A stretch of 64,000 nt of DNA, from the sequence record NC_019505.1; one strand, written 5' to 3'. Origin of the DNA: Escherichia phage wV7. Every line of letters starts with the position of its first letter. The first letter of the stretch is position 1. This document shows, in pieces, positions 2,925 through 46,133 of the stretch. The notes under the pieces were generated by a model, which ran no database searches, was not told the origin of the DNA, and saw only the letters and a program-made list of their open reading frames with translations. A program made the translations under genes and the position numbers.

Positions 2925-4125
2925 ATTTTGTAATAATGTCAAACTGTTCTTTAAAGCAGAAGCTTGAATCTTGATGCTGATACAAAAATTCATATGCTTT
3001 TTCTCGCTCACGGTCATAAAGAGCTCGGTCAGATGACAGTTCTTTAATACGTTCAAACGTTGATTCCATATCATTTTCATCAAACCAAACGATACCGCTA
3101 TCATGCGAAATTAGCGGAGTATTATCAACACGGAATTTTAAATTTTCGCCAGTAGATTTCCAAAATACCGGAATTGTTCCACATGCACCAAGCTCGAGAT
3201 GAGTATATTCTAAAGAACGCTGTAGATATTTTTTATCCAACTTACTCAGCTGATAACCAAATCCGGATTTACTCATGCGTTCAAGCATTTCGCTATTTAC
3301 ATAACGGTCAAGAATTTGCGTTGGCAAATTAGGAGCAATTTTAATTTGGTCTACTTGATGAAGACGATAATACTCGTATGGAATTCCTTTTTCTTTAATA
3401 GGAATGAACGCTGGAGAACGTTCCAGACCTTCCATAATAGTACTTAGTCCTGCAGGTTTAAGATGTTTTTCGTGAAAATCAAACATCTGATAAAAACCTT
3501 TCCATGTAGTCGTACGACCAATCCAACGGTTGATATTCATGTTAATTTCAGAAACATCTTTCCAGTAGGTTGATCGAACCTTCGCAATATCCATAGGAGG
3601 CTGAAAGTTGTATACGGTCGGTGCTTCTTCAATATCATCAAACAGAGAAACTGTTTCTGGATACCATTCTTTCATCAGAACTTTATTAAAATCGCCATTA
3701 TCAGAATGACTAAAAATAACATCAGCTCGACGAACAGTTTCTTCTAATCCCAAATTTCGGCGCAAAGAAAGAGAAGAATGGTCATGTTGATAAACTACAA
3801 CACGAACCGAAGGTTTAATGTTATCAATAATTTTTTTATAGTTATTAATGGTGTCTTCTTCTACTGAAGTAGCAGGAACTGAATTGATAATTAGAATATC
3901 ACAATCATTTACCAGCTTAAGTGTTTTATCGTATTCTTTTGCCAATAAAACTGGAATTGAAAATGACTTATAATCATGCGCGCAATTACGAGTAAATGAT
4001 TTATCTTTAGCATAAACCAAAGTTACTTCATGACCATTTTTAATAAACCAATCACGCTGCTCAAGAGAAAATTTAGTTACACCGCAACCTTCAAGACCTC
4101 GAGCCATAAAAATACATACTTTCAT
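2923..4125 (-). CDS. agt: DNA alpha-glucosyltransferase
   Basis: 400 aa; near-identical to recalled T4 alpha-gt (MxxCIFMARGLEGCGVTKFSLEQRDWF..., C-terminal FKEQFDIITK). Confidence 0.9.
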   Translation of the reverse strand: MKVCIFMARGLEGCGVTKFSLEQRDWFIKNGHEVTLVYAKDKSFTRNCAHDYKSFSIPVLLAKEYDKTLKLVNDCDILIINSVPATSVEEDTINNYKKIIDNIKPSVRVVVYQHDHSSLSLRRNLGLEETVRRADVIFSHSDNGDFNKVLMKEWYPETVSLFDDIEEAPTVYNFQPPMDIAKVRSTYWKDVSEINMNINRWIGRTTTWKGFYQMFDFHEKHLKPAGLSTIMEGLERSPAFIPIKEKGIPYEYYRLHQVDQIKIAPNLPTQILDRYVNSEMLERMSKSGFGYQLSKLDKKYLQRSLEYTHLELGACGTIPVFWKSTGENLKFRVDNTPLISHDSGIVWFDENDMESTFERIKELSSDRALYDREREKAYEFLYQHQDSSFCFKEQFDIITK

Positions 4126-4175
4126 TTAATATCCTCTTTGTTTTGGTTTATTTTACCAAAAATTTATAAAGCAAT

Positions 4176-4368: not shown

Positions 4369-4575
4369 TCACAGTTGCCACCATTTTTTGACTTGATAAG
4401 AATCAACCCACACTTTCATATTAGGGTCTGCTCTTACAATAGGAGGATTAACTTCTTTAATTGAACTATCATGGTATTCTTTTTCAGAAATTTTCACACA
4501 AAGATGACCATTCAAAGATTCAGTAAATCCTGCATTAATTTTAAGACGCTTGAATTTTACGTGTGTAAGCATCAA
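4369..4575 (-). CDS. Hypothetical small protein
   Basis: 68-aa ORF in agt-55 intergenic block; overlaps next ORF. Confidence 0.35.
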   Translation of the reverse strand: MMLTHVKFKRLKINAGFTESLNGHLCVKISEKEYHDSSIKEVNPPIVRADPNMKVWVDSYQVKKWWQL

Positions 4576-4858
4576 TCATATCCTCAATCTGCGATCTAGT
4601 AGTCTTCCAAAGAATACTGATGAGTTCATCGTTATATGGCTGTTTTAGAATATCCCGACTTTTCTTGATAGCATATTCGTATTGAGCAAAATTATTGTTT
4701 TCAGCTGCAATCTGAGCGTGCTTATAAAGACGATTCAGTTCACGTTTGTTTTTAGACAATAACTTATTTGCTTTTCTTTCTGCTTCAAGACGGTTCTTTT
4801 CTTCAATAGAAGAAATAAGCTTTTCCACTTCATCATTAATTTCGGGTTTATCAGTCAT
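4541..4858 (-). CDS. Hypothetical protein
   Basis: 105-aa ORF, charged and helical, tightly packed with neighbours. Confidence 0.5.
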   Translation of the reverse strand: MTDKPEINDEVEKLISSIEEKNRLEAERKANKLLSKNKRELNRLYKHAQIAAENNNFAQYEYAIKKSRDILKQPYNDELISILWKTTRSQIEDMIDAYTRKIQAS

Positions 4859-4859
4859 A

Positions 4860-5078
4860 TTATTTCTCTAATATAAAATAAAAATCATCATCTGTTAAAT
4901 GATACCGATAGTTTAATTCTACACCATTAGATTTAAAAGCGGTATCATACGGATTTTCTGGATCAATATCAATGTCAAGAGCTAAAACTTCCCTGAGATA
5001 CATTTTAAGTAAATAGGGAATAGCTTCAACTTCAGGTATTTCTTCCAAGAATCCGGAGAGGTTAATCGTTAGCCTCAT
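4860..5078 (-). CDS. Hypothetical small protein
   Basis: 72-aa ORF directly downstream of gene 55. Confidence 0.5.
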
Positions 5079-5619
5079 ATAAAAAATCCAAACTAGGAGA
5101 ATCGTCTACAACACTTTTCTTTTCAGCCCCTGGTGTTCTATAGGTTGATTCTTCGTAATGCGTCATTTTATCGTAGATGTCTTGAATAAAAGTTTCATCT
5201 ACTAACGCAACCATATCGTCGTCACGACTGTCATAGACATTGTGAACGAAGTAACTATATTTCTTTGCAACTTCCTTACGTTCTTTTTTAATACGTTGGA
5301 CGAATGCATTAAAACAAGCTTGAGTTATATATGCATGCGGGTTTTTATATTTCGTTTCATCAAAATTATGAAGCCCCTTAATAGAAGCTTCTATACCATC
5401 TGCAATCATTTCTTGTTTCCAAGACTGGGTGTATCCTGAAAAGTTGAAACGTTTAGATAAGCCTTCTGCAATAAGCATAATGGCTAATCCGATAGTATCA
5501 TTCTGACGAACTACTTTATTTGGGTCTTTATTATTTGCTAATTCTGTTTTCCAATCAATAATAGCTTGTAAAAGCTCTTTATTGTTTACGTAATTATATT
5601 TAGGCTTAGTTTCTGACAT
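5062..5619 (-). CDS. 55: Late-transcription sigma factor gp55
   Basis: Matches recalled T4 gp55 from [20 protein letters not shown]; start taken at third Met of the ORF to give 185 aa. Confidence 0.9.
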
Positions 5620-5697
5620 TTTCACCTCTTAGCTCAATTCATAGATCTATTATATCATAATATTTGAAGATCTATCTTAAAGCATAGAGGATATCAG

Positions 5698-5967
5698 TTA
5701 TCTAAGTAAGCAGTATGCTTGGAACACTTTCTCCATCATCTTTTTAAATTCATGAATATCTATATAATGACTAGTTAAATCAGCATGATATAAAAAGTCT
5801 AAAAACTTTTCATGTGTGCTAACATATTCACTTTCATTTAATTCAGAAATATGACTTTCCCAATATCCAACACCAGTCTTATTTGGGAAAAATGAAATTT
5901 TCATGCATTGATCAACATAGAAAATGCCATAATTTTCAATAGTAATAGAAATATTAATAAATTTCAT
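5698..5967 (-). CDS. Hypothetical protein
   Basis: 89-aa ORF, minus-strand operon context. Confidence 0.5.
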   Translation of the reverse strand: MKFINISITIENYGIFYVDQCMKISFFPNKTGVGYWESHISELNESEYVSTHEKFLDFLYHADLTSHYIDIHEFKKMMEKVFQAYCLLR

Positions 5968-6181: not shown

Positions 6182-6508
6182 TTATACCTTAGTAATTTTC
6201 AGGTCTGCAAATTTTTTCTTGCGTTGATTTTTCATGCGACGAATAGTCTTATCGGAAATTTCATGCTTTTGATAAGCTTTAGATTCTACGCCAAAAGCTT
6301 TAACATCAAATTCTGACAAGATATATTGAACCAACAATTCACGGACAGTATTGCGTCCAATCTTCTGATCATTCTGTTTCATCATTTGATGAAGATCTTT
6401 TTCCCATTTATCCAAAATTTGAGGAGTTACAATATCGCCTTTTTCTAGCAAAGAAACTACTTTATCATATGCGTAAGAATTAATGACGTTTTTAATTTGA
6501 ATAGTCAT
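6182..6508 (-). CDS. Hypothetical protein
   Basis: 108-aa ORF. Confidence 0.5.
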   Translation of the reverse strand: MTIQIKNVINSYAYDKVVSLLEKGDIVTPQILDKWEKDLHQMMKQNDQKIGRNTVRELLVQYILSEFDVKAFGVESKAYQKHEISDKTIRRMKNQRKKKFADLKITKV

Positions 6509-6901: not shown

Positions 6902-7195
6902 TCAGCTGTAACGATAACACTCGTTTGATTTACGTTTAGCAACTCGTTGAGAAGTATTATAATCAAAATCATCATCAATGTAAACTGATTTTTTCAACTT
7001 TCTTACTTCACCGCGTAATTGACGATTTAACTCATCTTTAACTTCTGAATCAATACCTTTCATTCTACGCCATTTATCTGAGCGAAAAATGTTTTCAACC
7101 ATATCTTTATGACTTACCCCATCAGGAGCTTTACGCTTTCCGAAATAGTCATAATCACGCACTTTTAAGTCTTTACGACGATACGTTTTACCCAT
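6902..7195 (-). CDS. Hypothetical basic protein
   Basis: ORF 6902-7240; start probably internal Met (MGKTYRRKDL...) just after the stop of the upstream ORF. Confidence 0.45.
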   Translation of the reverse strand: MGKTYRRKDLKVRDYDYFGKRKAPDGVSHKDMVENIFRSDKWRRMKGIDSEVKDELNRQLRGEVRKLKKSVYIDDDFDYNTSQRVAKRKSNECYRYS

Positions 7196-7370
7196 GGAGT
7201 TTAATTTCCTTAGCAACTGAACTAAATGCAGCACGATCACAAATCATGTGTTTATGTAACTTAAGTATAAGATAATAAACATCATAACCATTTACGTAAG
7301 TAACGCGAACAGCATTACCATTAATAAGATAATACTGTCCCTTTTTAATTTCTTTATCAACCACAACCAT
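7188..7370 (-). CDS. Hypothetical small protein
   Basis: 60-aa ORF directly downstream of an early promoter. Confidence 0.5.
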   Translation of the reverse strand: MVVVDKEIKKGQYYLINGNAVRVTYVNGYDVYYLILKLHKHMICDRAAFSSVAKEIKLHG

Positions 7371-7400
7371 ATCAAATCCTCAAAGGCAATTCATGTGTTA

Positions 7401-7430
7401 ATAATACCACGGTTTGAACTTGTTGTAAAC
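7401..7430 (-). promoter_or_regulatory. T4-type early promoter
   Basis: Minus strand GTTTAC -35, about 17-nt spacer, TGgTATTAT extended -10; AACAACTTTGTGAAA upstream element. Confidence 0.6.
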
Positions 7431-7501
7431 AACTTTGTGAAAATTATTTTAGGGAATGATAAGAAGGGAACGATAGCTTAGAATGGTAATATACAGAATG
7501 T

Positions 7502-7524
7502 AAGAAAGAAAGGCCCAGAGGGCC
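7502..7524 (-). terminator. Rho-independent terminator downstream of nrdH
   Basis: GGCCC / GGGCC stem with 3-nt loop followed by U-rich tract on minus RNA. Confidence 0.5.
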
Positions 7525-7528
7525 CGTC

Positions 7529-7900
7529 TTAGTCTTCTATGATATCTCTATCATATCCAAGTGAAATGAGAGTTTCTTTGAAGTGTTTAATGTTCTTTTG
7601 TCTAGAATCATTGATGAAAATGACTGGATAACGAATGTTAAGAGATGTGAATCCGGCGCGTTTAGCAAGAGATACAATCAGTGGACGATCATACTCAATC
7701 TTACCATTATTTGTAAGAACTTTATAGAAAGTAAAAGGAGCATTGAGCTCCTTTAGAAGTTTTGTAACTGATTGACATCCAGGACAACGACCTACTTCAT
7801 CTGGAATTCCATAGACTTCAATCTTATTCTTTAAGTTCGAGTTTTGTTCCACGAGAAATAATTCCTTGGTAAGCCCAATAAGGAGGATTAACAGAATCAT
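7529..7900 (-). CDS. nrdH: Glutaredoxin-like protein NrdH; start uncertain
   Basis: CPGC redox motif in ...KIEVYGIPDEVGRCPGCQSV... and thioredoxin-fold pattern; no canonical start codon after the upstream stop, so N-terminus is ambiguous. Confidence 0.6.
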   Translation of the reverse strand: MILLILLIGLTKELFLVEQNSNLKNKIEVYGIPDEVGRCPGCQSVTKLLKELNAPFTFYKVLTNNGKIEYDRPLIVSLAKRAGFTSLNIRYPVIFINDSRQKNIKHFKETLISLGYDRDIIED

Positions 7901-8135
7901 TACCAGAATTTTCTTCAGGGAAATAAACCTGGATAACGAAGCCGGATTCATCAAAGGTGAAATAAGTAGTAGGCAGTTCACCTAACAAATCAGCACGAGC
8001 GTTGATTTCTTCGAGGTCTTGTTCACGTCCAGCCCAGAAGCTTGGGTTCAGACTACATTCATAGAAATAATAGTCATTACCGAACATATCAAAACCATTC
8101 CAACTCTCTACTACATACCGCTCAAAACTAATCAT
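7824..8135 (-). CDS. Hypothetical acidic protein
   Basis: 103-aa ORF. Confidence 0.5.
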   Translation of the reverse strand: MISFERYVVESWNGFDMFGNDYYFYECSLNPSFWAGREQDLEEINARADLLGELPTTYFTFDESGFVIQVYFPEENSGNDSVNPPYWAYQGIISRGTKLELKE

Positions 8136-8137
8136 AA

Positions 8138-8353
8138 TTAAGCCTTTTTATCAAGAACAGCATTCAGCTTGTTAGTAATTTTATCCAGACGCTCATTGAA
8201 CTCACTAGAAGATAAGCCTTTTTCTGGAGAAATTAAGCTAATCACGAAAAATACAACAATAAAAGGAATAAGGAAAATAGCTCCAACTGCCATAAACAGA
8301 AAGAATGTTACAGTTGTAAGAAAATCAGCTAAACCTTTACGAAATTTATACAT
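8138..8353 (-). CDS. Small membrane protein
   Basis: 71 aa with one long hydrophobic segment. Confidence 0.5.
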   Translation of the reverse strand: MYKFRKGLADFLTTVTFFLFMAVGAIFLIPFIVVFFVISLISPEKGLSSSEFNERLDKITNKLNAVLDKKA

Positions 8354-8468
8354 ATTTTACCCTTAATTGATTAACCAAGCATTGATAAGCACTAAACTAT
8401 ATTGGGAATAAAATTCTGGACCAAAATGAAAAATCATATCATTTATAGTATCCATAATATAATTCAAT

Positions 8469-8939
8469 TTAATCATGTTTCCACACCCCATCGGTATTTG
8501 ACCAAAGTCGCTGATTGTCTGATCCTCGCCACAGCTTTTTGGTCGGAAGATTTTTCTCATACTTCCCATCAATAATAACATCAACATATTTAAGCATTTC
8601 TAGTTGTTTAATATCTTCAAACTTATATCCTGTCCACAACCAAATGCTTTTATTGGGATAAAGATTTTTAATAGTTTGAACCACAGAGTGAATCACGTCT
8701 CTGTTATCAGGATAAAGAGGGTCTCCTCCAGTTATAGTTAATCCTTCTATATAATCATTATTCAAACACTGAATCAGTTTTTCTAATGTCTCTCCGGTGA
8801 ATGGAATACCATTTCTAGCATTCCATGTTGATTTATTATAACACCCTTCGCATTTATGCAAACAACCTGTAACGAAAAGAACGACCCTGCAACCAGGGCC
8901 ATTCACAAAATCACAAGGATAAAATCTATCATAATTCAT
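8469..8939 (-). CDS. nrdG: Anaerobic ribonucleotide reductase activating protein (radical SAM)
   Basis: 156 aa; CxxxCxxC-type cysteine cluster (CLHKCEGC); directly downstream of nrdD. Confidence 0.9.
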   Translation of the reverse strand: MNYDRFYPCDFVNGPGCRVVLFVTGCLHKCEGCYNKSTWNARNGIPFTGETLEKLIQCLNNDYIEGLTITGGDPLYPDNRDVIHSVVQTIKNLYPNKSIWLWTGYKFEDIKQLEMLKYVDVIIDGKYEKNLPTKKLWRGSDNQRLWSNTDGVWKHD

Positions 8940-10753
8940 TGATGCTTAACCCTATGCATGATTTCTTTATTTTTACCGAGATTAAATCCGCGCTCGTTCG
9001 GATTTCCCAAATAACCACATGTTCTTCTTATTGTATTCATCTTTTTAGGATCAGTTTCTCCACAAATAGAACAAACAAATCCGTTTTCAGTAGGAGTCAT
9101 TTCATGGGTACTTCCGCATGTAAAACATTTATCTACTGGCATATTAACACCAAAATAATCTAAATGTTGTGCAGCATAATCCCATACGGCCTCAAGGCCT
9201 TTTAAGTTATTTTTCATATCAGGAAGTTCAACATAAGAAATGTGACCACCTGTCGCAATGAAATGATATGGCGCTTCACGAGAAATCTTTTCAAACGGAG
9301 TAATATTTTCTTCTACTGAAACATGGAAACTGTTAGTGTACCAACCTTTATCGGTAACATCTTTTACGCTTCCATATTTTTCTGTATCGAGTTTACAGAA
9401 GCGATAACAAAGGTTTTCAGCAGGAGTCGAATATAAACTAAAAGCAAATCCGGTTCTTTCAGTCCACTGTTTAAGATGAGCATTCATTTTAGTTAAAATT
9501 TCTCGTCCAATATCACGACCGACAAGAATATTCAATTCGTGAATACCAATGTATCCTAAAGACACTGAACTTCTACCATTTTTAAATAACTCAATTATAT
9601 CGTCATCAGGTTTAAGACGAACCCCGAATGCACCTTCTTGGTAAAGAATAGGAGCAACAGTAGCTTTAACTCCTTTTAAGGAACTAATTCTACACATCAA
9701 AGCTTCAAAACATAAATCCATTCGTTCATTAAATAGCTCAACAAATTTCTGTTCATTGAACTGTGTTCCAATATAAGAATCTAACGCGATGCGAGGAAGA
9801 TTCAGTGTTACAACACCAAGATTATTACGTCCATCAAGAATTTCATTACCAGTCGAATCTTTCCATACGCTCAAGAAACTACGGCAACCCATTGGAGAAA
9901 CAGGAACAGATGAACCAGTGATAGCTTTATTGTTCTTAGCTGAAATAATATCAGGATACATCCTTTTGCTTGCACACTCTAGAGCAAGCTGCTTAATATC
10001 ATAATTCGGATCGTCTTTGTAAAGATTAACGCCTTCTTCGACGAACATAACAAGCTTAGGAAAAATAGGAGTTATCCCATCACGACCGAGACCTTTAATG
10101 CGGTTTTTAAGAATTGCCTTCTGAATCATTCGTTCAGTCCAGTCAGTTCCCGTACCAAATGTAATTGTTACAAAAGGCGTTTGTCCGTTTGAACTAAAGA
10201 GAGTATTTACTTCATATTCATAAGCTTGGAATGCATCGTATACATCTTTTTCTGTTTTAGATTGAGCATAATTTAACGCATCAGCGATTTGCCATTTTTC
10301 TGCATCCTCAATATGTTTTGCATAGGTGCGTTTAACATAAGGAGAAAGTACTTTATCTACATTAGCAAAAGTCGTTCCGCCATATTGATGGGAAGCAACT
10401 TGCGCAGTAATTTGTGCCATAATTGCAGTAGCAACGCCAATTGATTTAGGAGTTTCAATCTGTGCATTACCAAGCTTAAATCCGTTCTCAAGCATTCCTT
10501 TTAAATCTACTAAACAGCAATTAGTAAATGGAAGAGCAGGGGAATAATCAATATCATGGAAATGAATAATTCCGCTTTCATGCGCTTTCATAATAAAAGA
10601 CGGGACCATATTTTTGGCAATGTGTTTAGACACAATACCAGCCATAAGGTCCCGTTGAGTTGGAAAAACACGAGAATCTTTATTAGCATTCTCGTTTAAA
10701 AGGTCTTTATTAGTTTTATGAATCAATCCTTCAATTTCTTTTTCAATTGTCAT
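8936..10753 (-). CDS. nrdD: Anaerobic ribonucleoside-triphosphate reductase, intronless
   Basis: 605-aa uninterrupted ORF; C-terminal glycyl-radical region RRTCGYLG and CxxC zinc ribbon. Confidence 0.92.
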   Translation of the reverse strand: MTIEKEIEGLIHKTNKDLLNENANKDSRVFPTQRDLMAGIVSKHIAKNMVPSFIMKAHESGIIHFHDIDYSPALPFTNCCLVDLKGMLENGFKLGNAQIETPKSIGVATAIMAQITAQVASHQYGGTTFANVDKVLSPYVKRTYAKHIEDAEKWQIADALNYAQSKTEKDVYDAFQAYEYEVNTLFSSNGQTPFVTITFGTGTDWTERMIQKAILKNRIKGLGRDGITPIFPKLVMFVEEGVNLYKDDPNYDIKQLALECASKRMYPDIISAKNNKAITGSSVPVSPMGCRSFLSVWKDSTGNEILDGRNNLGVVTLNLPRIALDSYIGTQFNEQKFVELFNERMDLCFEALMCRISSLKGVKATVAPILYQEGAFGVRLKPDDDIIELFKNGRSSVSLGYIGIHELNILVGRDIGREILTKMNAHLKQWTERTGFAFSLYSTPAENLCYRFCKLDTEKYGSVKDVTDKGWYTNSFHVSVEENITPFEKISREAPYHFIATGGHISYVELPDMKNNLKGLEAVWDYAAQHLDYFGVNMPVDKCFTCGSTHEMTPTENGFVCSICGETDPKKMNTIRRTCGYLGNPNERGFNLGKNKEIMHRVKHQ

Positions 10754-11223
10754 TTTAAACTCTTTCTAAGCTGCTTCTTAAATGAAGCTATTAATTGTGT
10801 TTTAGTGTCAGATTCATTATATTCAAATCCTCTTTGAAGCATCTCAGCCATCATTTCCTCTTTTCCTAAACGAGAAAATTCCTTTGATTTATCTCCAACA
10901 AAGTTAGGATGAATATTATTTTGGGTGTAATCGGATTTTAAATAAGTAAGTAAATTTTCTAACCATTCAAGATAATCAACACCTTGCCCCTTTAAGCCAG
11001 AACGATTAAATTTATGTTTCATTTGACCTTCTGCGGCATTGCAGAGATTACAAAGCAATCCACGCACCTTTCCTGCTTTTGGTCCATTTAATTCATGGTC
11101 ATGATCAAGATGATTAGCTTGAACATCAGGATTTAGTTCTCGTTGGCAAATTAAGCATTTACCGTTTTGTGCATTATAAAATTTTTGTTTTTCTTCTTTG
11201 TATAATTTGCCAGTCAATAACAT
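10750..11223 (-). CDS. 49: Endonuclease VII (Holliday junction resolvase) gp49
   Basis: 157 aa; zinc-binding Cys pattern CLICQ ... CNLCN with HDHE; matches recalled T4 gp49 length. Confidence 0.88.
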   Translation of the reverse strand: MLLTGKLYKEEKQKFYNAQNGKCLICQRELNPDVQANHLDHDHELNGPKAGKVRGLLCNLCNAAEGQMKHKFNRSGLKGQGVDYLEWLENLLTYLKSDYTQNNIHPNFVGDKSKEFSRLGKEEMMAEMLQRGFEYNESDTKTQLIASFKKQLRKSLK

Positions 11224-11265
11224 AATAAAACCCTTACCTTAAATAGATAAGGGTATTTATTATTT

Positions 11266-11751
11266 TCAAGTATTGAAAAACATTTGATTCAATCGCTTAT
11301 ATTGCCGAATCTTTTGGTCAGAAAAAGAAATTTGGGTTTCAAGCCATTCAATATATTCTGCCGCAGCTTGCATCAAATTTCCTTCATAGCCATCGTTATT
11401 TTCTTGTGCAGCTAATTTAGCTAATGCGTATGAAATACGTTCACCTTGAAAATCAGCTTTAGGCTTCTGAACAACTTGATTAGTTCTCTCTACAACTTCT
11501 TCAATTTCGCCATTTTCTACTGATTCAGTATTCCACAAGCACCAATACGTAATTGGCTTATCGTAGATGTTAATAATCTTTCCATCAGAAAGTTCAATTT
11601 CAATAATTCCAGTATCAGGTTCTATATCATCTTCACATTCTTTTGCAAGTTCACGAACTTTAAAGACAGTACCTGCACTAAGTTCCGGCCAGTAATTACA
11701 CAGCCCTGTATCAGCACGATTAATTCTAAACCACTTATCTACTGTAATCAT
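11266..11751 (-). CDS. Hypothetical protein at the T4 pin position (possible protease inhibitor)
   Basis: 161 aa from internal Met; call is positional and by size only. Confidence 0.4.
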   Translation of the reverse strand: MITVDKWFRINRADTGLCNYWPELSAGTVFKVRELAKECEDDIEPDTGIIEIELSDGKIINIYDKPITYWCLWNTESVENGEIEEVVERTNQVVQKPKADFQGERISYALAKLAAQENNDGYEGNLMQAAAEYIEWLETQISFSDQKIRQYKRLNQMFFNT

Positions 11752-11791
11752 GTCCCATCTCCATATCAATTAAGTCATTTATCGTTGGTTC

Positions 11792-11821
11792 ATTATATAT
11801 TGTTTCTTCATCAGTGTAAAC
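11792..11821 (-). promoter_or_regulatory. Candidate early promoter
   Basis: GTTTAC then about 18 nt then TATAAT-like hexamer upstream of ORF 11266-11751. Confidence 0.4.
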
Positions 11822-11874
11822 CGGTTCTTCCGGCTCTGGCTCTACAGTTTCCCATCTAGCCGCCCACCAAGGTT

Positions 11875-12195
11875 TTATAGCGTAATCCATTCTCGTACTA
11901 TCTGAGTTACTACACGTTCATGGGGCTCGACTAGTTCAACAGTCGGAACTGCATAATACCAGTCAGAATGATAAGAACCTGACCGAGATTCATTTACCGC
12001 TACATGTACATTATGTTTTGGACTAAAGTAAACACACTGACGATATTGACATTTACCATCTTGCACCCAGTCTTCTATTTCGACAGGTTTAAGATAATCG
12101 GAAAAATCGAAATCATAGTTTTCCGAAAATGCATCATGGTCTTCAATGATTTCGCTCAGAACTGCATCAACATCTAATTTATTTTCAATAGTCAT
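11875..12195 (-). CDS. Hypothetical protein
   Basis: 106-aa ORF. Confidence 0.5.
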   Translation of the reverse strand: MTIENKLDVDAVLSEIIEDHDAFSENYDFDFSDYLKPVEIEDWVQDGKCQYRQCVYFSPKHNVHVAVNESRSGSYHSDWYYAVPTVELVEPHERVVTQIVREWITL

Positions 12196-12208
12196 TTTTC
12201 ACCAATTA

Positions 12209-12376
12209 ATTTCGCAATTTATTAAGTTCTTCATCATCAATCCAGGATTCTAGTCCTGATGGCAGGGCACATTCAATTTCCCAAAGAAGTTCTTCAATTT
12301 TCTGAAGACGTTCTAGTTCTTCGGCTGGAATAGTAACCATTGACGGAGCTCGTGATACATTAATATCGTAAATCAT
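12209..12376 (-). CDS. Possible small ORF (about 55 aa), below ORF-track threshold
   Basis: Hand translation MIYDINVSRAPSMVTIPAEELERLQKIEEL... fills an otherwise empty gap. Confidence 0.3.
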
Positions 12377-12378
12377 AT

Positions 12379-12594
12379 TTACCCCAATTTAACCATACAA
12401 TCGCCGTATTTCCACTTAGAAATAGACTTTTCACCATTAGAATAATAAACTTCGAGTTTAGCACGATTATTTTTAATTTGAATAACCTTGGCTGTCATCA
12501 AAGTTCCATACCCATAATAAACTGCAACTTCATCACCTACATATACCGCGCTTCCGCGGTAATCATGAATATAGTCAGTTCCTTCGAGCATCAT
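12379..12594 (-). CDS. Hypothetical small protein
   Basis: 71-aa ORF immediately downstream of nrdC. Confidence 0.5.
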   Translation of the reverse strand: MMLEGTDYIHDYRGSAVYVGDEVAVYYGYGTLMTAKVIQIKNNRAKLEVYYSNGEKSISKWKYGDCMVKLG

Positions 12595-12854
12595 TTAAAA
12601 TATTCTCGCAGTTGGTCAAATCCACCAATATGACTTCCATCAGGAGCAAATACCTGGGGCATTGTCAAGCCGATTTGAGTATCACGACCTAGTTTAGTCA
12701 GAAGCTCAGCGATTTTCTCATCATCAAAAACACCTTTTTCCGGCATAATGTTGATAAATTCAAACGGCTGTTTCTTCACGGTCAAAAGACGTTTTGCATT
12801 ATCGCAATACACACATTTATGAATGTTGCTATCATAACCATATACTTTAAACAT
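12591..12854 (-). CDS. nrdC: Thioredoxin/glutaredoxin NrdC
   Basis: 87 aa with CVYC active site; matches recalled T4 thioredoxin. Confidence 0.92.
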   Translation of the reverse strand: MFKVYGYDSNIHKCVYCDNAKRLLTVKKQPFEFINIMPEKGVFDDEKIAELLTKLGRDTQIGLTMPQVFAPDGSHIGGFDQLREYFK

Positions 12855-12855
12855 A

Positions 12856-13098
12856 TTATTCCTTAATTCCTAGTACTTGTTTAAAAGTCTCGTCGTAATC
12901 AAGACTTTGGCCCGTTTGTTCTTTATGTTTGTATATAATATCACTTACTTCTGATAGCATATTTTTATATGAACGAGTTAAAGCAGATTTAAGCACGCTG
13001 TATCTATCAGGAAATTTACCATGTTCATTATAATAAGCTATTGCTAATTCACGGACTGCCTTTTCAGCAGCCTCCATATATTCTTTACGCTTGGTCAT
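12856..13098 (-). CDS. Hypothetical protein (nrdC.1 position)
   Basis: 80-aa ORF. Confidence 0.5.
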
Positions 13099-19986: not shown

Positions 19987-21000
19987 TCATTTATAATAAC
20001 TTCGATGGTTTTCAAGATAGACCTTCTCAAGGAAGTCATCCCAGAAACCCATGTCTACTTTTTGCTGCATACCGTTCTTAGAAGCTTCAATAGATGCTGC
20101 TTCTACTTGATCGACCACATCTTCCAAAAACTCTTGAACCGTTTTAAATGGATGTTTACCCAACTTCACGTCGAGAATAAATGGAGCATCTTGAAGTGGA
20201 TAAATCAAGTCGCCAGTTTTGTAAATTTCCAATAGTTGGAGTCCACCACGACAAGCATGGCTCAGAGCTTTCCAGTCAATACCTTCATTGGCTTCAGCCT
20301 TACGAGCGCGTTCACCATATTCAGCATCTAATTTGTTCAGTGACTGCTTAAGCTCAATAAGAGAAAGCGTTGTCTGATATTTACGACCCAATACAGTGTA
20401 GAACGTTTGTGGGCCTGTTTTCTCATGATTATGGAACACCCATTCACAGAATTCGTTTTCTGGAAGACGATGCTTAATATCTTCAACTTTAGTGCGACGC
20501 TGCTTAATAGAACCATCTTCTTGGTAATCAATCCACTGCTCAGGGATTTGATTAACTACTTTCAATACATCGCGTAATGCAGCCAAACGAGAACCCTTGA
20601 CGCCGTATTTAGAAGCTTGCTTGCGGACATATCCTAAATATGATTTCATGTTAGTCGTATAAAAACGATAACGGTTGTCTTGAATAAACTTCCACACATC
20701 AGGCAAATCAGATTTAACCACTAGCTCAGGTGGGGTGTGAAGCATATCTAATGCTACAGTTTCACCATCTGCTGCTAATTTAAAGAAATATTTAAGACTG
20801 TATAGTTCATGGTCAATATCATCTTTAGTGTTTTTAGATGATGTGTTGTTAGTGTTTTTACTCATGTGCTCTTTAACGTTTCCGATAAGAATATCACGAG
20901 CAGGAGGAACAAAGATTTCTTTAAAATCTACATCAGATTCTGGAGTAGAAGTTCCATAAAGATGACTACCAAAATAGCTTTTCATTACTGTTTTCATCAT
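19987..21000 (-). CDS. Predicted nucleotidyltransferase-fold protein
   Basis: 337 aa; N-terminal FGSHLYGTSTPESDVDF fits the G[SG]-x(9-13)-DxD polymerase-beta-type signature, with a later acidic residue in TVALDM; followed by UUCG terminator. Confidence 0.55.
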   Translation of the reverse strand: MMKTVMKSYFGSHLYGTSTPESDVDFKEIFVPPARDILIGNVKEHMSKNTNNTSSKNTKDDIDHELYSLKYFFKLAADGETVALDMLHTPPELVVKSDLPDVWKFIQDNRYRFYTTNMKSYLGYVRKQASKYGVKGSRLAALRDVLKVVNQIPEQWIDYQEDGSIKQRRTKVEDIKHRLPENEFCEWVFHNHEKTGPQTFYTVLGRKYQTTLSLIELKQSLNKLDAEYGERARKAEANEGIDWKALSHACRGGLQLLEIYKTGDLIYPLQDAPFILDVKLGKHPFKTVQEFLEDVVDQVEAASIEASKNGMQQKVDMGFWDDFLEKVYLENHRSYYK

Positions 21001-21458
21001 TCAGCCTTATATTCAATAACAGGACATACTTTAGCTTTACGAGCTTTTAAAAATTCAACGATAATCGATTTCTTGGGTTGAATAGGAGGTAAACCTTTAT
21101 TTTTCCTATCAATGTTTTCTACGTGTAAAGCATAATCCTTTTTCCATTTATAATCTTTATATTTTTCACGCAAATGTGCAGGAATAACAAATGAACCGAT
21201 AATAAGTAAAACAACCAAAAGCGCAAGTATAAATGCCGATGGAAGAAGAGCCCATAAACTACCGAAAATAAGCCAACGTTGTAGGCTTTCTGCACAAATA
21301 ATTGTTAACCCTACGAGTATAGCACACCCAAAAATAGAAACGAAAAATGTAGGTATGGCAATAGACCAAAAATATGCGCATAGTGTCTTAGGTCGTTGCC
21401 ATTCATCGTTAAACAATTTGAATAATTTATAGTGCCAAGAGTTTTCATTAATAATCAT
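20997..21458 (-). CDS. Membrane protein
   Basis: 153 aa with two or three hydrophobic helices. Confidence 0.55.
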   Translation of the reverse strand: MIINENSWHYKLFKLFNDEWQRPKTLCAYFWSIAIPTFFVSIFGCAILVGLTIICAESLQRWLIFGSLWALLPSAFILALLVVLLIIGSFVIPAHLREKYKDYKWKKDYALHVENIDRKNKGLPPIQPKKSIIVEFLKARKAKVCPVIEYKAE

Positions 21459-21460
21459 AA

Positions 21461-21982
21461 TTATCCTTTCATTGAAGGCGTAACGGTTGTTAAATACTTA
21501 ATCATAGCTTCAGCTTCTGATTTTGATAGTGAAATTTCTTCACCGTTTTGGCGAATAGAAACAAAATCTGGATGACGATCACCACCAGCTTTTAAAACAC
21601 ACATATAAGTATCAGCTTCGCCTTCAATATTTGAAATGATTGAAGCAGTTCCACACGAATGTGGTTTTTGATAAATCAATACAGCTTTTCTTCCACCATT
21701 TGACTGTTCATAGGCTTTTAATACATCAAACAAATCAGTTCTTTTATCAATAGCTAAAATGTTATTTTCATCTTCAATGTTAAATCCTTCGGATACTTCA
21801 TAAAGCGTTACCCATAAATCGCCAATATCAATAACAGCATTTACTTTTCCACGGCTTTCAAGAGTATGACAAATTTTCTTGATTTCGTCATAACTCATTT
21901 TAATAATATCATCTCCTTGACTAAGAAAGATGTCATTTTTAAATTCAACACGAATTAAACCGCTTCCACTTGAAATAAACAT
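21461..21982 (-). CDS. Hypothetical protein, tandem paralog A
   Basis: 173 aa; shares GFNIE core and C-terminal KYLTTVTPSM with the next ORF. Confidence 0.55.
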   Translation of the reverse strand: MFISSGSGLIRVEFKNDIFLSQGDDIIKMSYDEIKKICHTLESRGKVNAVIDIGDLWVTLYEVSEGFNIEDENNILAIDKRTDLFDVLKAYEQSNGGRKAVLIYQKPHSCGTASIISNIEGEADTYMCVLKAGGDRHPDFVSIRQNGEEISLSKSEAEAMIKYLTTVTPSMKG

Positions 21983-30467: not shown

Positions 30468-30941
30468 TTATTTGAACGATTTAACGTACTGAATAGAACC
30501 CTTACTATTCACAAAGGCAATTTTACCATTTTTATTATACATGGTAGCAGTACGCTGATAACCATAGGTTTGTTTACCAGATTGATAACCAACTAATGCA
30601 AAATTATCTTCACCCATTTTATTCTGTTTAGCGCGAATGCGTTCATGACCATGTGCCATAAGAACCTTAGCATCACCAGTTGCAATGGATCGACGAGTTT
30701 TTTCATCTTCAACTGCATTAACAAAGTCGTCAAATGAATCAAATTTAGCATGAGATTTATTATACAATTTTCCATCTACTGCATAATTATATCCCTGTAC
30801 ATCCATCTCAACTTCTGTACCATCATCCAATACAGCAGTAATTTTTTGACCTTTTTTAAATTTCAAAAGATCAGTAAAAGATTCAGCAATAATTTGAGAA
30901 TTAATAGCTGCTTCAGTGATAAATTCTTGATATGTTTTCAT
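30468..30941 (-). CDS. Internal head protein-like, with capsid targeting sequence
   Basis: 157 aa; N-terminus MKTYQEFITEAA is the T4 internal-protein leader with an L/I-x-E prohead-protease site; sits directly downstream of denV. Confidence 0.7.
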   Translation of the reverse strand: MKTYQEFITEAAINSQIIAESFTDLLKFKKGQKITAVLDDGTEVEMDVQGYNYAVDGKLYNKSHAKFDSFDDFVNAVEDEKTRRSIATGDAKVLMAHGHERIRAKQNKMGEDNFALVGYQSGKQTYGYQRTATMYNKNGKIAFVNSKGSIQYVKSFK

Positions 30942-30950
30942 GGGTTTCCT

Positions 30951-34884: not shown

Positions 34885-35418
34885 TTATATCATGCTACTT
34901 AAGAGATGTAAACTATTTTTAATTTTACAAATTCGTTCAGCTTCTTCAACAGCGGCAGTGATAATGCTTTTAGCTATAGGAGTACTAATATTAGTAGCTT
35001 TTACACTTAACACGATTTCTTTATCTTTACCAGGCCAACCCCACGATTTTTCACCATGAGTGCCTTTAATTACAGCAGACACCTCAAGTGAGCATCCATT
35101 ATCGCATGTTTTTACATTAACAACCCAAGTGTCACTTTTCTCAACCGGTTTATCCCAGTAAATATTAAGAATACGTGGGACATCAAATTTAGCAGGGCAA
35201 ATCTTAACCGTAAGACCTTCGCTTTCTAGCCAATTAATAAGAGGGCGTTCATACATGCGGCGATGTGGGCTTTGAACTCGACAAGCTTTGTACCCATTGC
35301 TTGCGGCTTCACTAAGCTCTTCTAATACATGCTTTTGCATTATTGATAAGATACCATCAAAAGATTTTTCGGAAGTTTCATTCAGTTCGGTATAAAGAGA
35401 CATAACAGTTTTCCTCAA
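34885..35418 (-). CDS. Hypothetical protein
   Basis: 177-aa ORF. Confidence 0.5.
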   Translation of the reverse strand: MRKTVMSLYTELNETSEKSFDGILSIMQKHVLEELSEAASNGYKACRVQSPHRRMYERPLINWLESEGLTVKICPAKFDVPRILNIYWDKPVEKSDTWVVNVKTCDNGCSLEVSAVIKGTHGEKSWGWPGKDKEIVLSVKATNISTPIAKSIITAAVEEAERICKIKNSLHLLSSMI

Positions 35419-35964: not shown

Positions 35965-36438
35965 TTATTTGATTTGTTTAGCAGACCAAATGCGGTCTTT
36001 AATAATTTTTTGGATGTCTTCAACATACTCAAGAGAGTGAGCATGTGGATTATCTTTGAAACTATAAGCACGAGCTAGTTTTTGGCCTTCAGTTTTGATT
36101 ACTAAAAGCTCTTTAAGGATAGCTTCATATTTGGAGATAATTCCTTTAACAATATTTTTCTCTTGTGCGACTTTAGGATCTGCTTTAGGAGCAGGTTTAC
36201 CCGAAGCCTTTGCAAAAGCAGCGCCAGTAGCAACTAAACTTTTCCAGGCCATACTAACTGCATTTCCCGTAAATCCTTCCGCTTTCATGTCGCGTGCGAA
36301 CTGGAATCGCGATTCATCAGAAGCATCTTTATAAGAATATTTACCCGCTGCAATGGCTGCTTTTGCGACAGCTTGAATTTCGGTGCTAGATGCTTCATTT
36401 AACACCGCTTCATTTAAAAATTGAGTATATGATTTCAT
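35965..36438 (-). CDS. Internal head protein-like, with capsid targeting sequence (cassette gene)
   Basis: 157 aa; N-terminus MKSYTQFLNEAV is a leader variant; minus-strand TATAAATA 40 nt upstream; flanked by near-identical terminator repeats. Confidence 0.65.
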   Translation of the reverse strand: MKSYTQFLNEAVLNEASSTEIQAVAKAAIAAGKYSYKDASDESRFQFARDMKAEGFTGNAVSMAWKSLVATGAAFAKASGKPAPKADPKVAQEKNIVKGIISKYEAILKELLVIKTEGQKLARAYSFKDNPHAHSLEYVEDIQKIIKDRIWSAKQIK

Positions 36439-36825: not shown

Positions 36826-37176
36826 TTAATATTCTTTTAAAGCATCAATCTGTTTACGGCGTTCACGCCATAAATCAATTGCTTCATACGCGGATTCAAC
36901 ATTTCGAATTGGACGGCATTTATATAAAGATTTGTGATTTTGATATTGCGTAGATAACGGAATTTTATCTAAAAGGTCTTTACGTTCAAAGTATTCGTAA
37001 CCATCTAAGCCAAATGAACGATTTTTGAGAAATTGCCAATGACCAAATTCGTTTTGAATATAAATATAATCCGCATGTTGATAAAGTAAATTAATTTCAC
37101 GAAATGAGATATGTTTTTCATATTCATTGAAGTAAAATGTTAAATCATGAACTACTAAATAAACATTACCTTTCAT
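36826..37176 (-). CDS. Hypothetical protein inside tRNA region
   Basis: 116-aa ORF with strong GAGGAAAA RBS, just downstream of tRNA-Arg. Confidence 0.5.
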   Translation of the reverse strand: MKGNVYLVVHDLTFYFNEYEKHISFREINLLYQHADYIYIQNEFGHWQFLKNRSFGLDGYEYFERKDLLDKIPLSTQYQNHKSLYKCRPIRNVESAYEAIDLWRERRKQIDALKEY

Positions 37177-37194
37177 ATTTTCCTCACTTATAAT

Positions 37195-37270
37195 TGGTCG
37201 AGGCAGTAGGGATCGAACCTACGACCTAGGACTTAGAAGGTCCTTGCTCTTCCTTCTGAGCTATGCCCCG
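37195..37270 (-). tRNA. tRNA-Arg (anticodon UCU), CCA encoded
   Basis: Hand-folded cloverleaf: acceptor CGGGGCA/TGCCTCG, anticodon loop CTTCTAA, T-loop TTCGATC. Confidence 0.8.
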
Positions 37271-37274
37271 TAAT

Positions 37275-37350
37275 TGGGGTGACCGATGGGAGTCGAACCC
37301 ATGACTACGAGAATCACAATCTCGAGTTCTACCAACTGAACTACGGTCAC
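37275..37350 (-). tRNA. tRNA-His (anticodon GUG), CCA encoded
   Basis: Acceptor GTGACCG/CGGTCAC, anticodon stem CGAGA/TCTCG with loop TTGTGAT, discriminator C; no encoded G-1. Confidence 0.7.
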
Positions 37351-37464
37351 ATTAATACCTACTCCAACAATCAAGATGTCTTCACACGAAATTAAGAGAA
37401 GAGTGATCAGTTCAACCCCTATAATCGCGTCAAGTAGATATTAATGTGACAGTTGTCACAAATT

Positions 37465-37539
37465 TGGCGGACGTGATAGGATTCGAACCTATAACCAATC
37501 GCTTAACAGGCGATCGCTCTGCCATTGAGCTACACATCC
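37465..37539 (-). tRNA. tRNA-Asn (anticodon GUU), CCA encoded
   Basis: Acceptor GGATGTG/CACGTCC (one G-U), anticodon loop CTGTTAA, T-loop TTCGAAT. Confidence 0.75.
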
Positions 37540-37543
37540 AAAT

Positions 37544-37630
37544 TGGTGGGGAGTGGTGGAGTCGAACCACCCGAGTCGCAATGACAATGAATTTACAGTC
37601 CACACCGCTACCTCTACGGGATAACTCCCC
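37544..37630 (-). tRNA. tRNA-Tyr (anticodon GUA), long variable arm, CCA encoded
   Basis: Acceptor GGGGAGT/ACTCCCC, anticodon loop CTGTAAA, variable-arm hairpin GTC-ATTGC-GAC, T-loop TTCGACT. Confidence 0.7.
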
Positions 37631-37642
37631 TAATTCATAATT

Positions 37643-37717
37643 TGGTGGCCCTGGGTGGAATTGAACCACCATCTGGCGATTATGAGTCGCTTGCTTGAAC
37701 CTTCCAGCTACAGGGCC
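37643..37717 (-). tRNA. tRNA with CAU anticodon (Met, or Ile by T4 analogy), CCA encoded
   Basis: Acceptor GGCCCTG/CAGGGCC, anticodon loop CTCATAA, T-loop TTCAATT. Confidence 0.75.
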
Positions 37718-37718
37718 T

Positions 37719-37794
37719 TGGTGCTGATTGACGGAATCGAACCGCCGACCTTCTCATTACAAGTGAGTTGCTCTACCTACTGAGCTAAATCAGC
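37719..37794 (-). tRNA. tRNA-Thr (anticodon UGU), CCA encoded
   Basis: Acceptor GCTGATT/AATCAGC, anticodon loop CTTGTAA, T-loop TTCGATT. Confidence 0.8.
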
Positions 37795-37799
37795 AAAAC

Positions 37800-37889
37800 T
37801 GGCGGAGGTGATAGGATTCGAACCTATGAATCGCCGGAGCGACTGCCGGTTTTCAAGACCGGTGCATTCAACCACTCTGCCACACCTCC
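37800..37889 (-). tRNA. tRNA-Ser (anticodon UGA), long variable arm, CCA encoded
   Basis: Acceptor GGAGGTG/CACCTCC, anticodon loop CTTGAAA, long variable arm, T-loop TTCGAAT. Confidence 0.8.
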
Positions 37890-37891
37890 AG

Positions 37892-37965
37892 TCTCCATAC
37901 AAGGATTTGAACCTTGGACCTCCTGATCCCAAATCAGGCGCTCTACCAAACTGAGCTACACGGAG
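37892..37965 (-). tRNA. tRNA-Pro (anticodon UGG), CCA not encoded
   Basis: Acceptor CTCCGTG/TATGGAG (two G-U), anticodon loop TTTGGGA, T-loop TTCAAAT; followed by CT then next tRNA. Confidence 0.75.
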
Positions 37966-37975
37966 TAAATTAAAT

Positions 37976-38049
<74 letters not shown>

Positions 38050-38054
38050 AAATT

Positions 38055-38141
38055 TGGTGCGAGAAGTGGGACTCGAACCCACAAGGAAATCATTCCGCAG
38101 CATTTTAAGTGCTGTGCCTTTACCAATTTGACCATTCTCGC
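38055..38141 (-). tRNA. tRNA-Leu (anticodon UAA), long variable arm, CCA encoded
   Basis: Acceptor GCGAGAA/TTCTCGC, anticodon stem CAGCA/TGCTG with loop CTTAAAA, T-loop TTCGAGT. Confidence 0.8.
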
Positions 38142-38142
38142 G

Positions 38143-38215
38143 CTGGGAATAAAGGACTCGAACCTTTGCATCTAGCAGTCAAAGTGCTATGCCTTACCAA
38201 CTTGGCTAATTCCCA
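38143..38215 (-). tRNA. tRNA-Gln (anticodon UUG), CCA not encoded
   Basis: Acceptor TGGGAAT/ATTCCCA, anticodon stem TAGCA/TGCTA with loop CTTTGAC, T-loop TTCGAGT; abuts tRNA-Leu. Confidence 0.8.
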
Positions 38216-43599: not shown

Positions 43600-45310
43600 T
43601 AACCTCAATTGGTTTGTTGGTGTTGTTGAAGATAGAATGGACCCATTGAAATTAGGTCGTGTTCGTGTTCGTGTTGTTGGTCTGCATCCACCTCAAAGAG
43701 CACAAGGTGATGTAATGGGTATTCCAACTGAAAAATTACCATGGATGTCAGTTATTCAACCTATAACTTCTGCAGCAATGTCTGGAATTGGAGGCTCCGT
43801 TACTGGACCGGTAGAAGGAACTAGAGTTTATGGTCATTTTTTAGACAAATGGAAAACCAACGGAATTGTTCTTGGCACATATGGTGGAATAGTTCGCGAA
43901 AAACCTAATAGACTTGAAGGATTTTCTGACCCAACTGGGCAATATCCTAGACGTTTAGGAAATGATACTAACGTACTAAACCAAGGCGGAGAAGTAGGAT
44001 ATGATTCGTCTTCTAACGTTATTCAAGATAGTAACTTAGACACTGCAATAAATCCTGATGATAGACCACTATCAGAGATTCCAACCGATGATAATCCAAA
44101 TATGTCAATGGCTGAAATGCTTCGCCGTGATGAAGGATTAAGACTAAAAGTTTATTGGGATACCGAAGGATATCCGACAATTGGTATTGGTCATCTTATC
44201 ATGAAGCAGCCAGTTCGTGATATGGCTCAAATTAATAAAGTTTTATCAAAACAAGTTGGTCGTGAAATTACTGGAAACCCAGGTTCTATTACAATGGAAG
44301 AGGCGACAGCTTTATTTGAGCGTGATTTGGCTGATATGCAACGTGACATTAAATCACATTCTAAAGTAGGACCAGTCTGGCAAGCTGTCAACCGTTCTCG
44401 TCAAATGGCGTTAGAAAATATGGCATTTCAGATGGGTGTTGGCGGTGTAGCTAAATTTAACACAATGTTAACTGCTATGTTAGCAGGAGATTGGGAAAAA
44501 GCATATAAAGCTGGTCGTGATTCGTTGTGGTATCAACAAACAAAAGGCCGTGCATCCCGTGTTACCATGATTATTCTTACCGGAAATTTGGAATCATATG
44601 GTATTGAAGTTAAAACACCAGCTAGGTCTTTGTCGGCAATGGCTGCTACTGTGGCGAAGTCTTCTGATCCAGCTGACCCTCCTATTCCAAATGACTCAAG
44701 AATTTTATTCAAAGAACCAGTTTCTTCATATAAAGGCGAATATCCGTATGTTCACACAATGGAAACTGAAAGCGGTCATATTCAGGAATTTGATGATACC
44801 CCTGGGCAAGAACGATATAGATTAGTTCATCCAACTGGAACTTATGAAGAAGTATCACCGTCAGGAAGAAGAACAAGAAAAACTGTCGATAATTTGTATG
44901 ATATAACCAACGCTGATGGTAATTTTTTGGTAGCCGGCGATAAAAAGACTAACGTCGGTGGATCAGAAATTTATTACAACATGGATAATCGTCTTCACCA
45001 AATAGATGGAAGCAATACAATATTTGTACGTGGCGATGAAACTAAGACGGTTGAAGGTAATGGAACTATCCTAGTTAAAGGTAATGTTACTATTGTAGTT
45101 GAAGGTAATGCTGACATTACAGTTAAAGGAGATGCTACCACTTTAGTTGAAGGAAATCAGACTAATACAGTAAATGGAAATCTTTCTTGGAAAGTTGCTG
45201 GGACAGTTGATTGGGACGTTGGTGGTGATTGGACAGAAAAAATGGCATCTATGAGTTCTATTTCATCTGGTCAATACACAATTGATGGATCGAGGATTGA
45301 CATTGGCTAA
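43583..45310 (+). CDS. 5: Baseplate hub / tail lysozyme and cell-puncturing spike gp5
   Basis: 575 aa; internal lysozyme domain (MAEMLRRDEGLRLKVYWDTEGYPTIGIGHL) paralogous to gene e; C-terminal VxG beta-helix repeats. Confidence 0.95.
   Translation: MEMISNNLNWFVGVVEDRMDPLKLGRVRVRVVGLHPPQRAQGDVMGIPTEKLPWMSVIQPITSAAMSGIGGSVTGPVEGTRVYGHFLDKWKTNGIVLGTYGGIVREKPNRLEGFSDPTGQYPRRLGNDTNVLNQGGEVGYDSSSNVIQDSNLDTAINPDDRPLSEIPTDDNPNMSMAEMLRRDEGLRLKVYWDTEGYPTIGIGHLIMKQPVRDMAQINKVLSKQVGREITGNPGSITMEEATALFERDLADMQRDIKSHSKVGPVWQAVNRSRQMALENMAFQMGVGGVAKFNTMLTAMLAGDWEKAYKAGRDSLWYQQTKGRASRVTMIILTGNLESYGIEVKTPARSLSAMAATVAKSSDPADPPIPNDSRILFKEPVSSYKGEYPYVHTMETESGHIQEFDDTPGQERYRLVHPTGTYEEVSPSGRRTRKTVDNLYDITNADGNFLVAGDKKTNVGGSEIYYNMDNRLHQIDGSNTIFVRGDETKTVEGNGTILVKGNVTIVVEGNADITVKGDATTLVEGNQTNTVNGNLSWKVAGTVDWDVGGDWTEKMASMSSISSGQYTIDGSRIDIG
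45030..45190 (+). repeat. Tandem octapeptide-coding repeats inside gene 5 (spike beta-helix)
   Basis: Repeated GTTGAAGGTAATG / GTTAAAGG units encoding VEGNGTILVKGNVTIVVEGNADITVKGDATTLVEGNQT. Confidence 0.6.
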
Positions 45311-45320
45311 TATACTTCCA

Positions 45321-45839
45321 ATGAGCGCTGATTTAGGAGAATCCATGGAAGGTTCTTCTATCGACGTCACCTTTACCGCTCAATTAGAAACAGGTGAAAC
45401 GTTAGTATCTATAAATATAACTAGTTACGAAGAAACTCCTGGGGTTTTAGTAGAAGAAAATCGCTTATACGGAACATATGAATCTGTATTTGGTTTTGGA
45501 AATGACGCGTTGAAATATCGTTTAGGCGATGAATTTAAAACTGCTGCTTCATGGGAAGAACTTCCAACTGATTCTAATACTCAGTTGTATTTGTGGAAAG
45601 CTCCCCAAAACCTCCAGAAGACATTCACTTACGAAGTAACATTAATATATGACTATCAAGAACAAAGTGAATCTGGAGGTTCTGGCAGTAATTCTAGGTC
45701 ATCTTCTGATACTACTGAACCGACAGATCCTCCTGCTCCAGTAAGAAAAACTCTCGTTAAAAATTATACTAAAACTATAGTTGGAAATTGGAGTCGTTGG
45801 GCTAATAAATTGAGAAGCTATGTGTATGAGAGGCCATAA
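45321..45839 (+). CDS. 5.1: Baseplate-associated protein gp5.1; start uncertain
   Basis: ORF 45282-45839; start taken at first Met after the gene 5 stop. Confidence 0.6.
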
Positions 45840-46133
45840 ATGTCAGGATTAAGTTATGATAAGTGTGTTACTGCTGGCCATGAAGCGTGGCCTCCAACAG
45901 TTGTGAATGCTACACAAAGCAAAGTATTCACTGGAGGAATTGCTGTTCTAGTAGCAGGCGATCCAATTACAGAACATACAGAAATTAAAAAGCCATATGA
46001 AACACATGGCGGAGTGACACAACCTAGAACTTCTAAGGTATATGTCACTGGAAAGAAAGCTGTTCAAATGGCTGATCCAATATCATGCGGTGATACTGTG
46101 GCTCAGGCATCATCTAAAGTATTCATTAAATAG
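45840..46133 (+). CDS. 5.4: Spike tip protein gp5.4 (PAAR-like)
   Basis: 97 aa; size and position match T4 gp5.4. Confidence 0.8.

Follow-up and report, generated by a model that had tools for sequence, protein, structure and literature searches.

An uninterrupted nrdD gene and missing T4 homing endonuclease genes between gene 46 and gene 17 of Escherichia phage wV7

We analyzed a 64,000-nucleotide stretch of DNA from Escherichia phage wV7 (NC_019505.1; hereafter the window), which carries an intact nrdD gene on its minus strand (8936..10753). The gene is a single uninterrupted open reading frame (ORF) of 605 aa, running from ATG to stop, and encodes the large subunit of a class III (anaerobic) ribonucleotide reductase. 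The preliminary description of this DNA had proposed a single 605-aa nrdD ORF, and the ORF list and Pfam matches to NRDD (2.1e-171) and Gly_radical (1.2e-25) agree on this point. The presence of both the NRDD catalytic domain and the C-terminal glycyl-radical domain places the protein among the class III ribonucleotide reductases, and its translation shows a C-terminal RRTCGYLG motif and the cysteine pairs CFTCG...CSICG. The adjacent radical-SAM activase expected for a class III NrdD is encoded by nrdG (8469..8939, minus strand; Fer4_12, 9.6e-49; Radical_SAM, 1.8e-07), which aligns with T4 nrdG and whose ATG overlaps the nrdD stop codon as ATGA at 8936-8939. Upstream of nrdD lies gene 49 (10750..11223, minus strand), encoding the Holliday junction resolvase endonuclease VII (Endonuclease_7, 9.3e-22; Endonuc-dimeris, 1.5e-33), with gp49 99.4% identical to T4 gp49 over 157 aa (tblastn).

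We aligned the window by blastn to the T4 reference (NC_000866, positions 30000-72000 and 70300-81200, with annotation). Against the window, T4 nrdD genomic DNA contains a 1033-nt insert at 44815..45847 that starts after the exon sequence ending in GCTTATGAGT and finishes in CATTG. Removal of this insert yields a 605-aa protein identical to the window NrdD at 604 of 605 positions, with F65V as the sole change; the window gene and the spliced T4 gene share 97.4% nucleotide identity. The empty insertion site lies at 10196..10225 on the minus strand, with the exon 1 equivalent ending at 10216 and the exon 2 equivalent starting at 10215, and its junction reads GCTTATGAAT/ATGAAGTAAATACTCTCTTT, compared to GCTTATGAGT/ATGAAGTGAACACGTTATTC across the T4 exons. 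At the gathering threshold, Rfam detects a group I intron in the T4 locus (Intron_gpI, 105 bits), and finds only tRNAs in the window, with no group I intron or degenerate remnant of one anywhere along it. The window nrdD therefore belongs with the intronless alleles, its exon equivalents being contiguous and free of an Intron_gpI match, and both the alignment and the Rfam result substantiate the earlier proposal that a group I intron interrupts nrdD in T4 and not in this phage.

The T4 and window loci thus specify near-identical proteins with the same neighbors, gene 49 upstream and nrdG downstream, but only T4 possesses the 1033-nt self-splicing group IA intron, whose 258-aa ORF encodes the GIY-YIG endonuclease I-TevII, and only T4 carries mobC between nrdD and nrdG. 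The window arrangement instead appears to be that of intronless T-even nrdD (sunY) alleles such as the one in T2, in which the reading frame is continuous and the exon equivalents are fused at the position of the T4 intron. Such T2-like intronless alleles served as the recipients in classical intron-homing crosses. The assignment of I-TevII to the nrdD intron, and of I-TevIII to the nrdB intron, follows Table 1 of PMC2988022.

The window spans gene 46 to gene 17, an interval in which T4 has six homing endonuclease genes, and blastn synteny reveals that all six are missing: mobB, mobC, the nrdD intron ORF I-TevII, mobD, segB, and segC. (Past window position 46261, synteny with T4 was assigned from ORF lengths, for genes 6 to 17, and Pfam identities.) All of the sites described here lie on the minus strand except that of segC. 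At the mobB site, between a-gt and a-gt.2, the 861 bp of T4 37818-38678 are replaced by a 24-bp gap (4117..4140), and the flanking blastn blocks 1-4116 and 4141-5692 match T4 33702-37817 and 38679-40230. The mobC site is empty in that nrdG directly abuts nrdD, the 601 bp at T4 42917-43517 being without a window counterpart, and the nrdD intron/I-TevII site (T4 44815-45847) is closed at 10216/10215. The segC (+5.3) site, between 5.1 and 5.4 on the plus strand, is likewise empty (45836..45841): blocks 39475-45841 and 45836-46261 correspond to T4 73855-80217 and 80775-81200, and the intervening 557 bp (T4 80218-80774) are missing.

The position of mobD (T4 56449-57258) differs from these sites in that blastn synteny breaks and unrelated sequence takes its place (21001..21964). 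Two minus-strand ORFs lie here: one of 153 aa (20997..21458), a predicted membrane protein of phrog_944, and one of 173 aa (21461..21982), a y05I-like protein with the Pfam domains T4_y05I_N and T4_y05I_C. Neither shows a nuclease domain in Pfam or PHROGs.

The segB site falls in a tRNA region of the T2L type (36826..38215, minus strand), comprising a 116-aa ORF and 11 tRNA genes. In T4, segB and tRNA-Ile lie within 71168-72014; window positions 36826-37698 contain the 116-aa ORF together with tRNAs Arg, His, Asn, Tyr, and Met. The complete window set is Arg, His, Asn, Tyr, Met, Thr, Ser, Pro, Gly, Leu, and Gln, compared to eight tRNA genes in T4, and tRNA-Ile is absent from the window cluster. 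Flanked by tRNA-Arg and the counterpart of rnaD, the 116-aa ORF matches phrog_3355 and no nuclease family of Pfam. Phages T2L, RB1, and RB3 lack segB and retain the target that SegB prefers, tRNA-Asn (Brok-Volchanskaya et al. 2008, PMC2330249). The window shares with these phages the absence of segB, the presence of tRNA-Asn, tRNA-Tyr, and tRNA-Met, an ORF of unknown function, and the Thr-Ser-Pro-Gly-Leu-Gln block, and additionally has tRNA-His. Its tRNA-Asn contains GGTTCGAATCC, an element of the preferred SegB target. Overall, the earlier statement that no GIY-YIG or HNH homing ORFs occupy the positions where T4 has segB and mobD is borne out, with four further T4 elements missing as well.

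The window differs from T4 in several further respects. T4 ipII and ipIII (T4 65359-66454) are absent (window region 30468-31378), and a 157-aa ORF (30468..30941; DUF7412, 8e-95; phrog_3155, "internal virion protein") is found instead, on the other side of denV. Small non-T4 ORFs occur at 5698-5967, 7824-8135, 12206-12594, 22524-22977, 25870-26252, 34885-35418, and 35965-36438; they include DUF7200, phrog_2749, DUF7205, and phage tudor domain proteins, and none has a nuclease domain.

A homing endonuclease domain in one of the hypothetical ORFs would have contradicted the preliminary description, and none was among the matches listed in the profile search. We searched with Pfam, in batches, all 228 ORFs of at least 50 aa in the window; 135 of these lie on the strand that is coding locally, and the other 93 lie opposite. 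Among the matches listed for these 228 ORFs there is no GIY-YIG, HNH, HNH_3, NUMOD, or LAGLIDADG family, and neither PF01541 nor a related family, so that no ORF can be assigned to the GIY-YIG homing endonucleases. For one batch, three families with E-values of 0.0033-0.01 were not among the matches listed, and follow-up Pfam searches of the large ORFs of that batch gave AAA/STAND, RlaP, DUF, and y05I-like matches only. The sole His-Me-finger (HNH-superfamily) protein detected is gp49, a conserved resolvase and not an HNH homing endonuclease. All nuclease-type Pfam matches fall in conserved T4 genes, namely those encoding gp49, gp4, denV, regB, gp47, and the terminase gp17. The head-completion gene 4 (42509-42961) matches a TnsA-like endonuclease N-terminal domain (PF08722, 1.9e-21); we rejected this PD-(D/E)xK match as a mobile endonuclease because it corresponds to the conserved gene.

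Several small window-specific ORFs lack any Pfam match. In PHROGs, the window-specific ORFs fall into a membrane protein family, an internal virion protein family, and families without an assigned function; those of no known function include 7824..8135, 34885..35418, 35965..36438, and 36826..37176. Judged from these profiles, the apparent lack of homing endonucleases would extend to the families modelled in Pfam.

Remnants of the T4 endonuclease genes were equally absent. In tblastn searches with the proteins of the six T4 endonuclease genes, the best E-value in the window was 0.04, with gp49 recovered at 99.4% identity as a control. Profile hidden Markov models (HMMs) of mobB/C/D and segB/C, and a phmmer search with I-TevII, detected nothing below E = 1 in the window, but recovered the T4 genes at 1e-80 to 1e-170. 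A weak match to both segB and segC, antisense within gene 6 (around 46952-47104, E about 0.05), was rejected because it has no ORF and a chance-level score.

Outside the window, we made use of KP869105.1 (Escherichia coli O157 typing phage 7, a Tequatrovirus), which is 100% identical to the window over positions 7000-13000 and differs from it across 44 kb by one homopolymer indel. This difference lies near 6440 (ORF 6182..6508), where the window has T5 and KP869105.1 has T6, giving an intact 108-aa 55.2-like ORF in the former and two CDSs in the latter; one of the two sequences probably has a homopolymer error here. The remaining nine T4 endonuclease sites likewise look empty in KP869105.1. 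A single 605-aa ORF makes up gene 39, with no gene 60/mobA split, the gene after uvsX encodes a 280-aa glucosyltransferase and is not segA, and gene 56 has no adjoining segF. The gaps 23/24, inh/uvsW, nrdA/nrdB, and 32/59 measure about 50-100 bp each, and td (286 aa) and nrdB are uninterrupted. HMM searches of this record covered positions 1-50000, and Pfam covered a non-exhaustive set of 20 candidate ORFs outside the window. Among these candidates only denA (endonuclease II), which is not a homing enzyme, matches GIY-YIG (2e-06), and it serves as a positive control for the Pfam search. The searched text of the typing-phage paper does not discuss introns or homing endonucleases (PMC4429339).

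Two further features of KP869105.1 concern gene content. Between frd and td, which are adjacent in T4, lies a 115-aa ORF without a Pfam match (159791-160138). At 137892-142046, the annotation gives a tandem pair of ADP-ribosyltransferase (Alt-like) ORFs, each about 690 aa long, whereas T4 has a single alt gene.

Close relatives show that endonuclease content is variable. Phages AR1, RB51, RB68, and RB14 (Tequatrovirus) align with window positions 7000-13000 colinearly and without a break, at 97-98% identity; the annotation of this 6-kb match names nrdD, nrdG, 49, and pin and lists no endonuclease. Phage AndreasVesalius (MZ501050.1, 112144-118973) is 97.2% identical over the same interval, but has an 829-bp insert in which a putative homing endonuclease is annotated. 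This insert indicates that even very closely related phages differ in endonuclease content, which does not follow lineage.

We then placed the window among phage records; because duplicates, laboratory derivatives of T4, and short partial entries are counted along with the rest, percentages are rough. An nrdD at no less than 90% identity is present in 691 phage records. The 80-nt window junction is uninterrupted in 596 of these, with 552 at 95% identity or above. An nrdD intron of the T4 type occurs in 25 records, many of them T4 isolates, and an intron of either of two types in about 69. The T4 endonuclease genes are similarly in the minority, with mobD in 47 records, segB in 183, mobC in 32, mobB in 62, and segC in 38. 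Uninterrupted nrdD and the absence of each T4 endonuclease gene are thus the majority state among Tequatrovirus-like records, and their occurrence in the window is ordinary. T4 itself is the outlier, with 15 homing endonuclease genes (PMC2988022).

The second type of nrdD intron shares the T4 insertion site, measures 1047 nt, is 66% identical to the T4 intron, and contains a 256-aa I-TevII-like ORF. It is found in Tequatrovirus BCH953P4 (OZ035784.1), Shigella phage SP21535, and phage FL23; the copy in BCH953P4 is not reported by Rfam Intron_gpI at the gathering threshold.

The nucleotide differences between window and T4 nrdD bear on the history of the site. There are 48 in total, all but one synonymous, and they are unevenly spread. 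The 30 nt across the insertion site (10196-10225) contain seven synonymous differences where 0.8 would be expected (P about 2e-5), and the 240 nt 3' of the site (nrdD nt 541-780, window 9974-10213) contain 20 of the 48 (P about 1e-6). The window-type junction is the consensus of intronless genomes, with about 550 intronless records at 95% identity or better, and an uninterrupted T4-type exon junction never occurs in the phage collection, the best full-length match being 93.8%. Since the T4 junction is seen only beside the intron, the T4 flanking allele travels with the intron. The clustering of differences is consistent with a co-conversion tract, in which the T4 exon flanks would have arrived together with the intron during homing.

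Overall, we favor a model in which the window represents a Tequatrovirus with a plain, uninvaded gene 46 to gene 17 arrangement. Its nrdD is continuous and translationally abutted to nrdG, and the T4 endonuclease sites are either empty or filled with unrelated small genes. Homing endonuclease genes are selfish insertions that cut endonuclease-free alleles in mixed infection and are copied into them by repair. Their distribution among T-even phages is sporadic, and T4 has an unusually heavy load. We assign a probability of roughly 0.85 to this reading, that the arrangement is plain and uninvaded and that the absence of endonucleases reflects a common, probably ancestral, recipient-type state and not a special property. 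We infer that no invasion of these sites ever took place, and not that an invasion was later reversed by recombination with an empty allele. The preliminary description had called this phage a member of an endonuclease-poor lineage. Taken literally that is true, as the sites in the window and the nine outside it look empty, but the framing as a special lineage is misleading: absence is the majority state, it varies between close relatives, and T4 is the outlier.

An alternative that we consider unlikely is secondary loss, in which an ancestor possessed several mob and seg genes as well as the nrdD intron, all of them later precisely removed, by recombination with endonuclease-free relatives in co-infection or by deletion. 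Models of the homing endonuclease cycle of gain, degeneration, and loss do include a loss step (PMC2988022), and T-even phages recombine very actively. Moreover, the mobD position contains different genes instead of a clean gap, indicating that this region has been remodelled. Against such a history, neither a remnant of any of the six genes (tblastn) nor a degenerate intron (Rfam) was detected in the window, and the nrdD exon flanks carry the allele of the intronless consensus, not the one linked to the T4 intron. Six independent clean losses would also be less parsimonious than an absence of invasion.

Target-site resistance, in which the homing sites would have diverged synonymously far enough to escape cutting by I-TevII and other T4 enzymes, is very improbable. 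The excess of synonymous differences across the nrdD insertion site and 3' of it speaks in its favor. However, it is the window sequence that matches the intronless consensus and the T4 version that is found only beside the intron, so the divergence is better explained by co-conversion from a donor on the T4 side, and the flanking pattern argues against the window site having diverged to escape cleavage. Moreover, intronless T-even phages gain the nrdD intron efficiently in crosses, according to work cited in PMC2988022, and the window retains a tRNA-Asn with the SegB core element (PMC2330249). We are similarly doubtful, to the point of near-rejection, of a broader proposal that the phage lacks all 15 of the T4 genes, and any other detectable homing endonuclease gene, owing to some barrier to homing, whether active or structural (for instance systematic synonymous target-site divergence), or to ecological isolation from endonuclease-bearing phages on O157 hosts, as opposed to chance non-exposure. 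Finally, an assembly or annotation artefact, with a real intron or endonuclease genes collapsed or lost in short-read assembly, is scarcely credible: the deposited record carries a partial-genome label and the homopolymer indel points to some quality issues, but the same uninterrupted junctions recur in hundreds of independently sequenced relatives, unique insertions of 0.4-1 kb are unlike what assemblers collapse, and reading frames are intact across every empty site.

An uninvaded arrangement of this kind is already known, and our analysis adds nothing new in this respect. The endonuclease-free recipient configuration has been recognized since the first surveys of intron distribution. Beyond correct annotation the significance is slight: the window adds one more T-even genome in this configuration, in keeping with published work that regards T4, and not its relatives, as the anomaly. 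In practical terms, with empty sites for all T4 elements of the region, the phage would be a convenient natural recipient for homing and marker-exclusion crosses.
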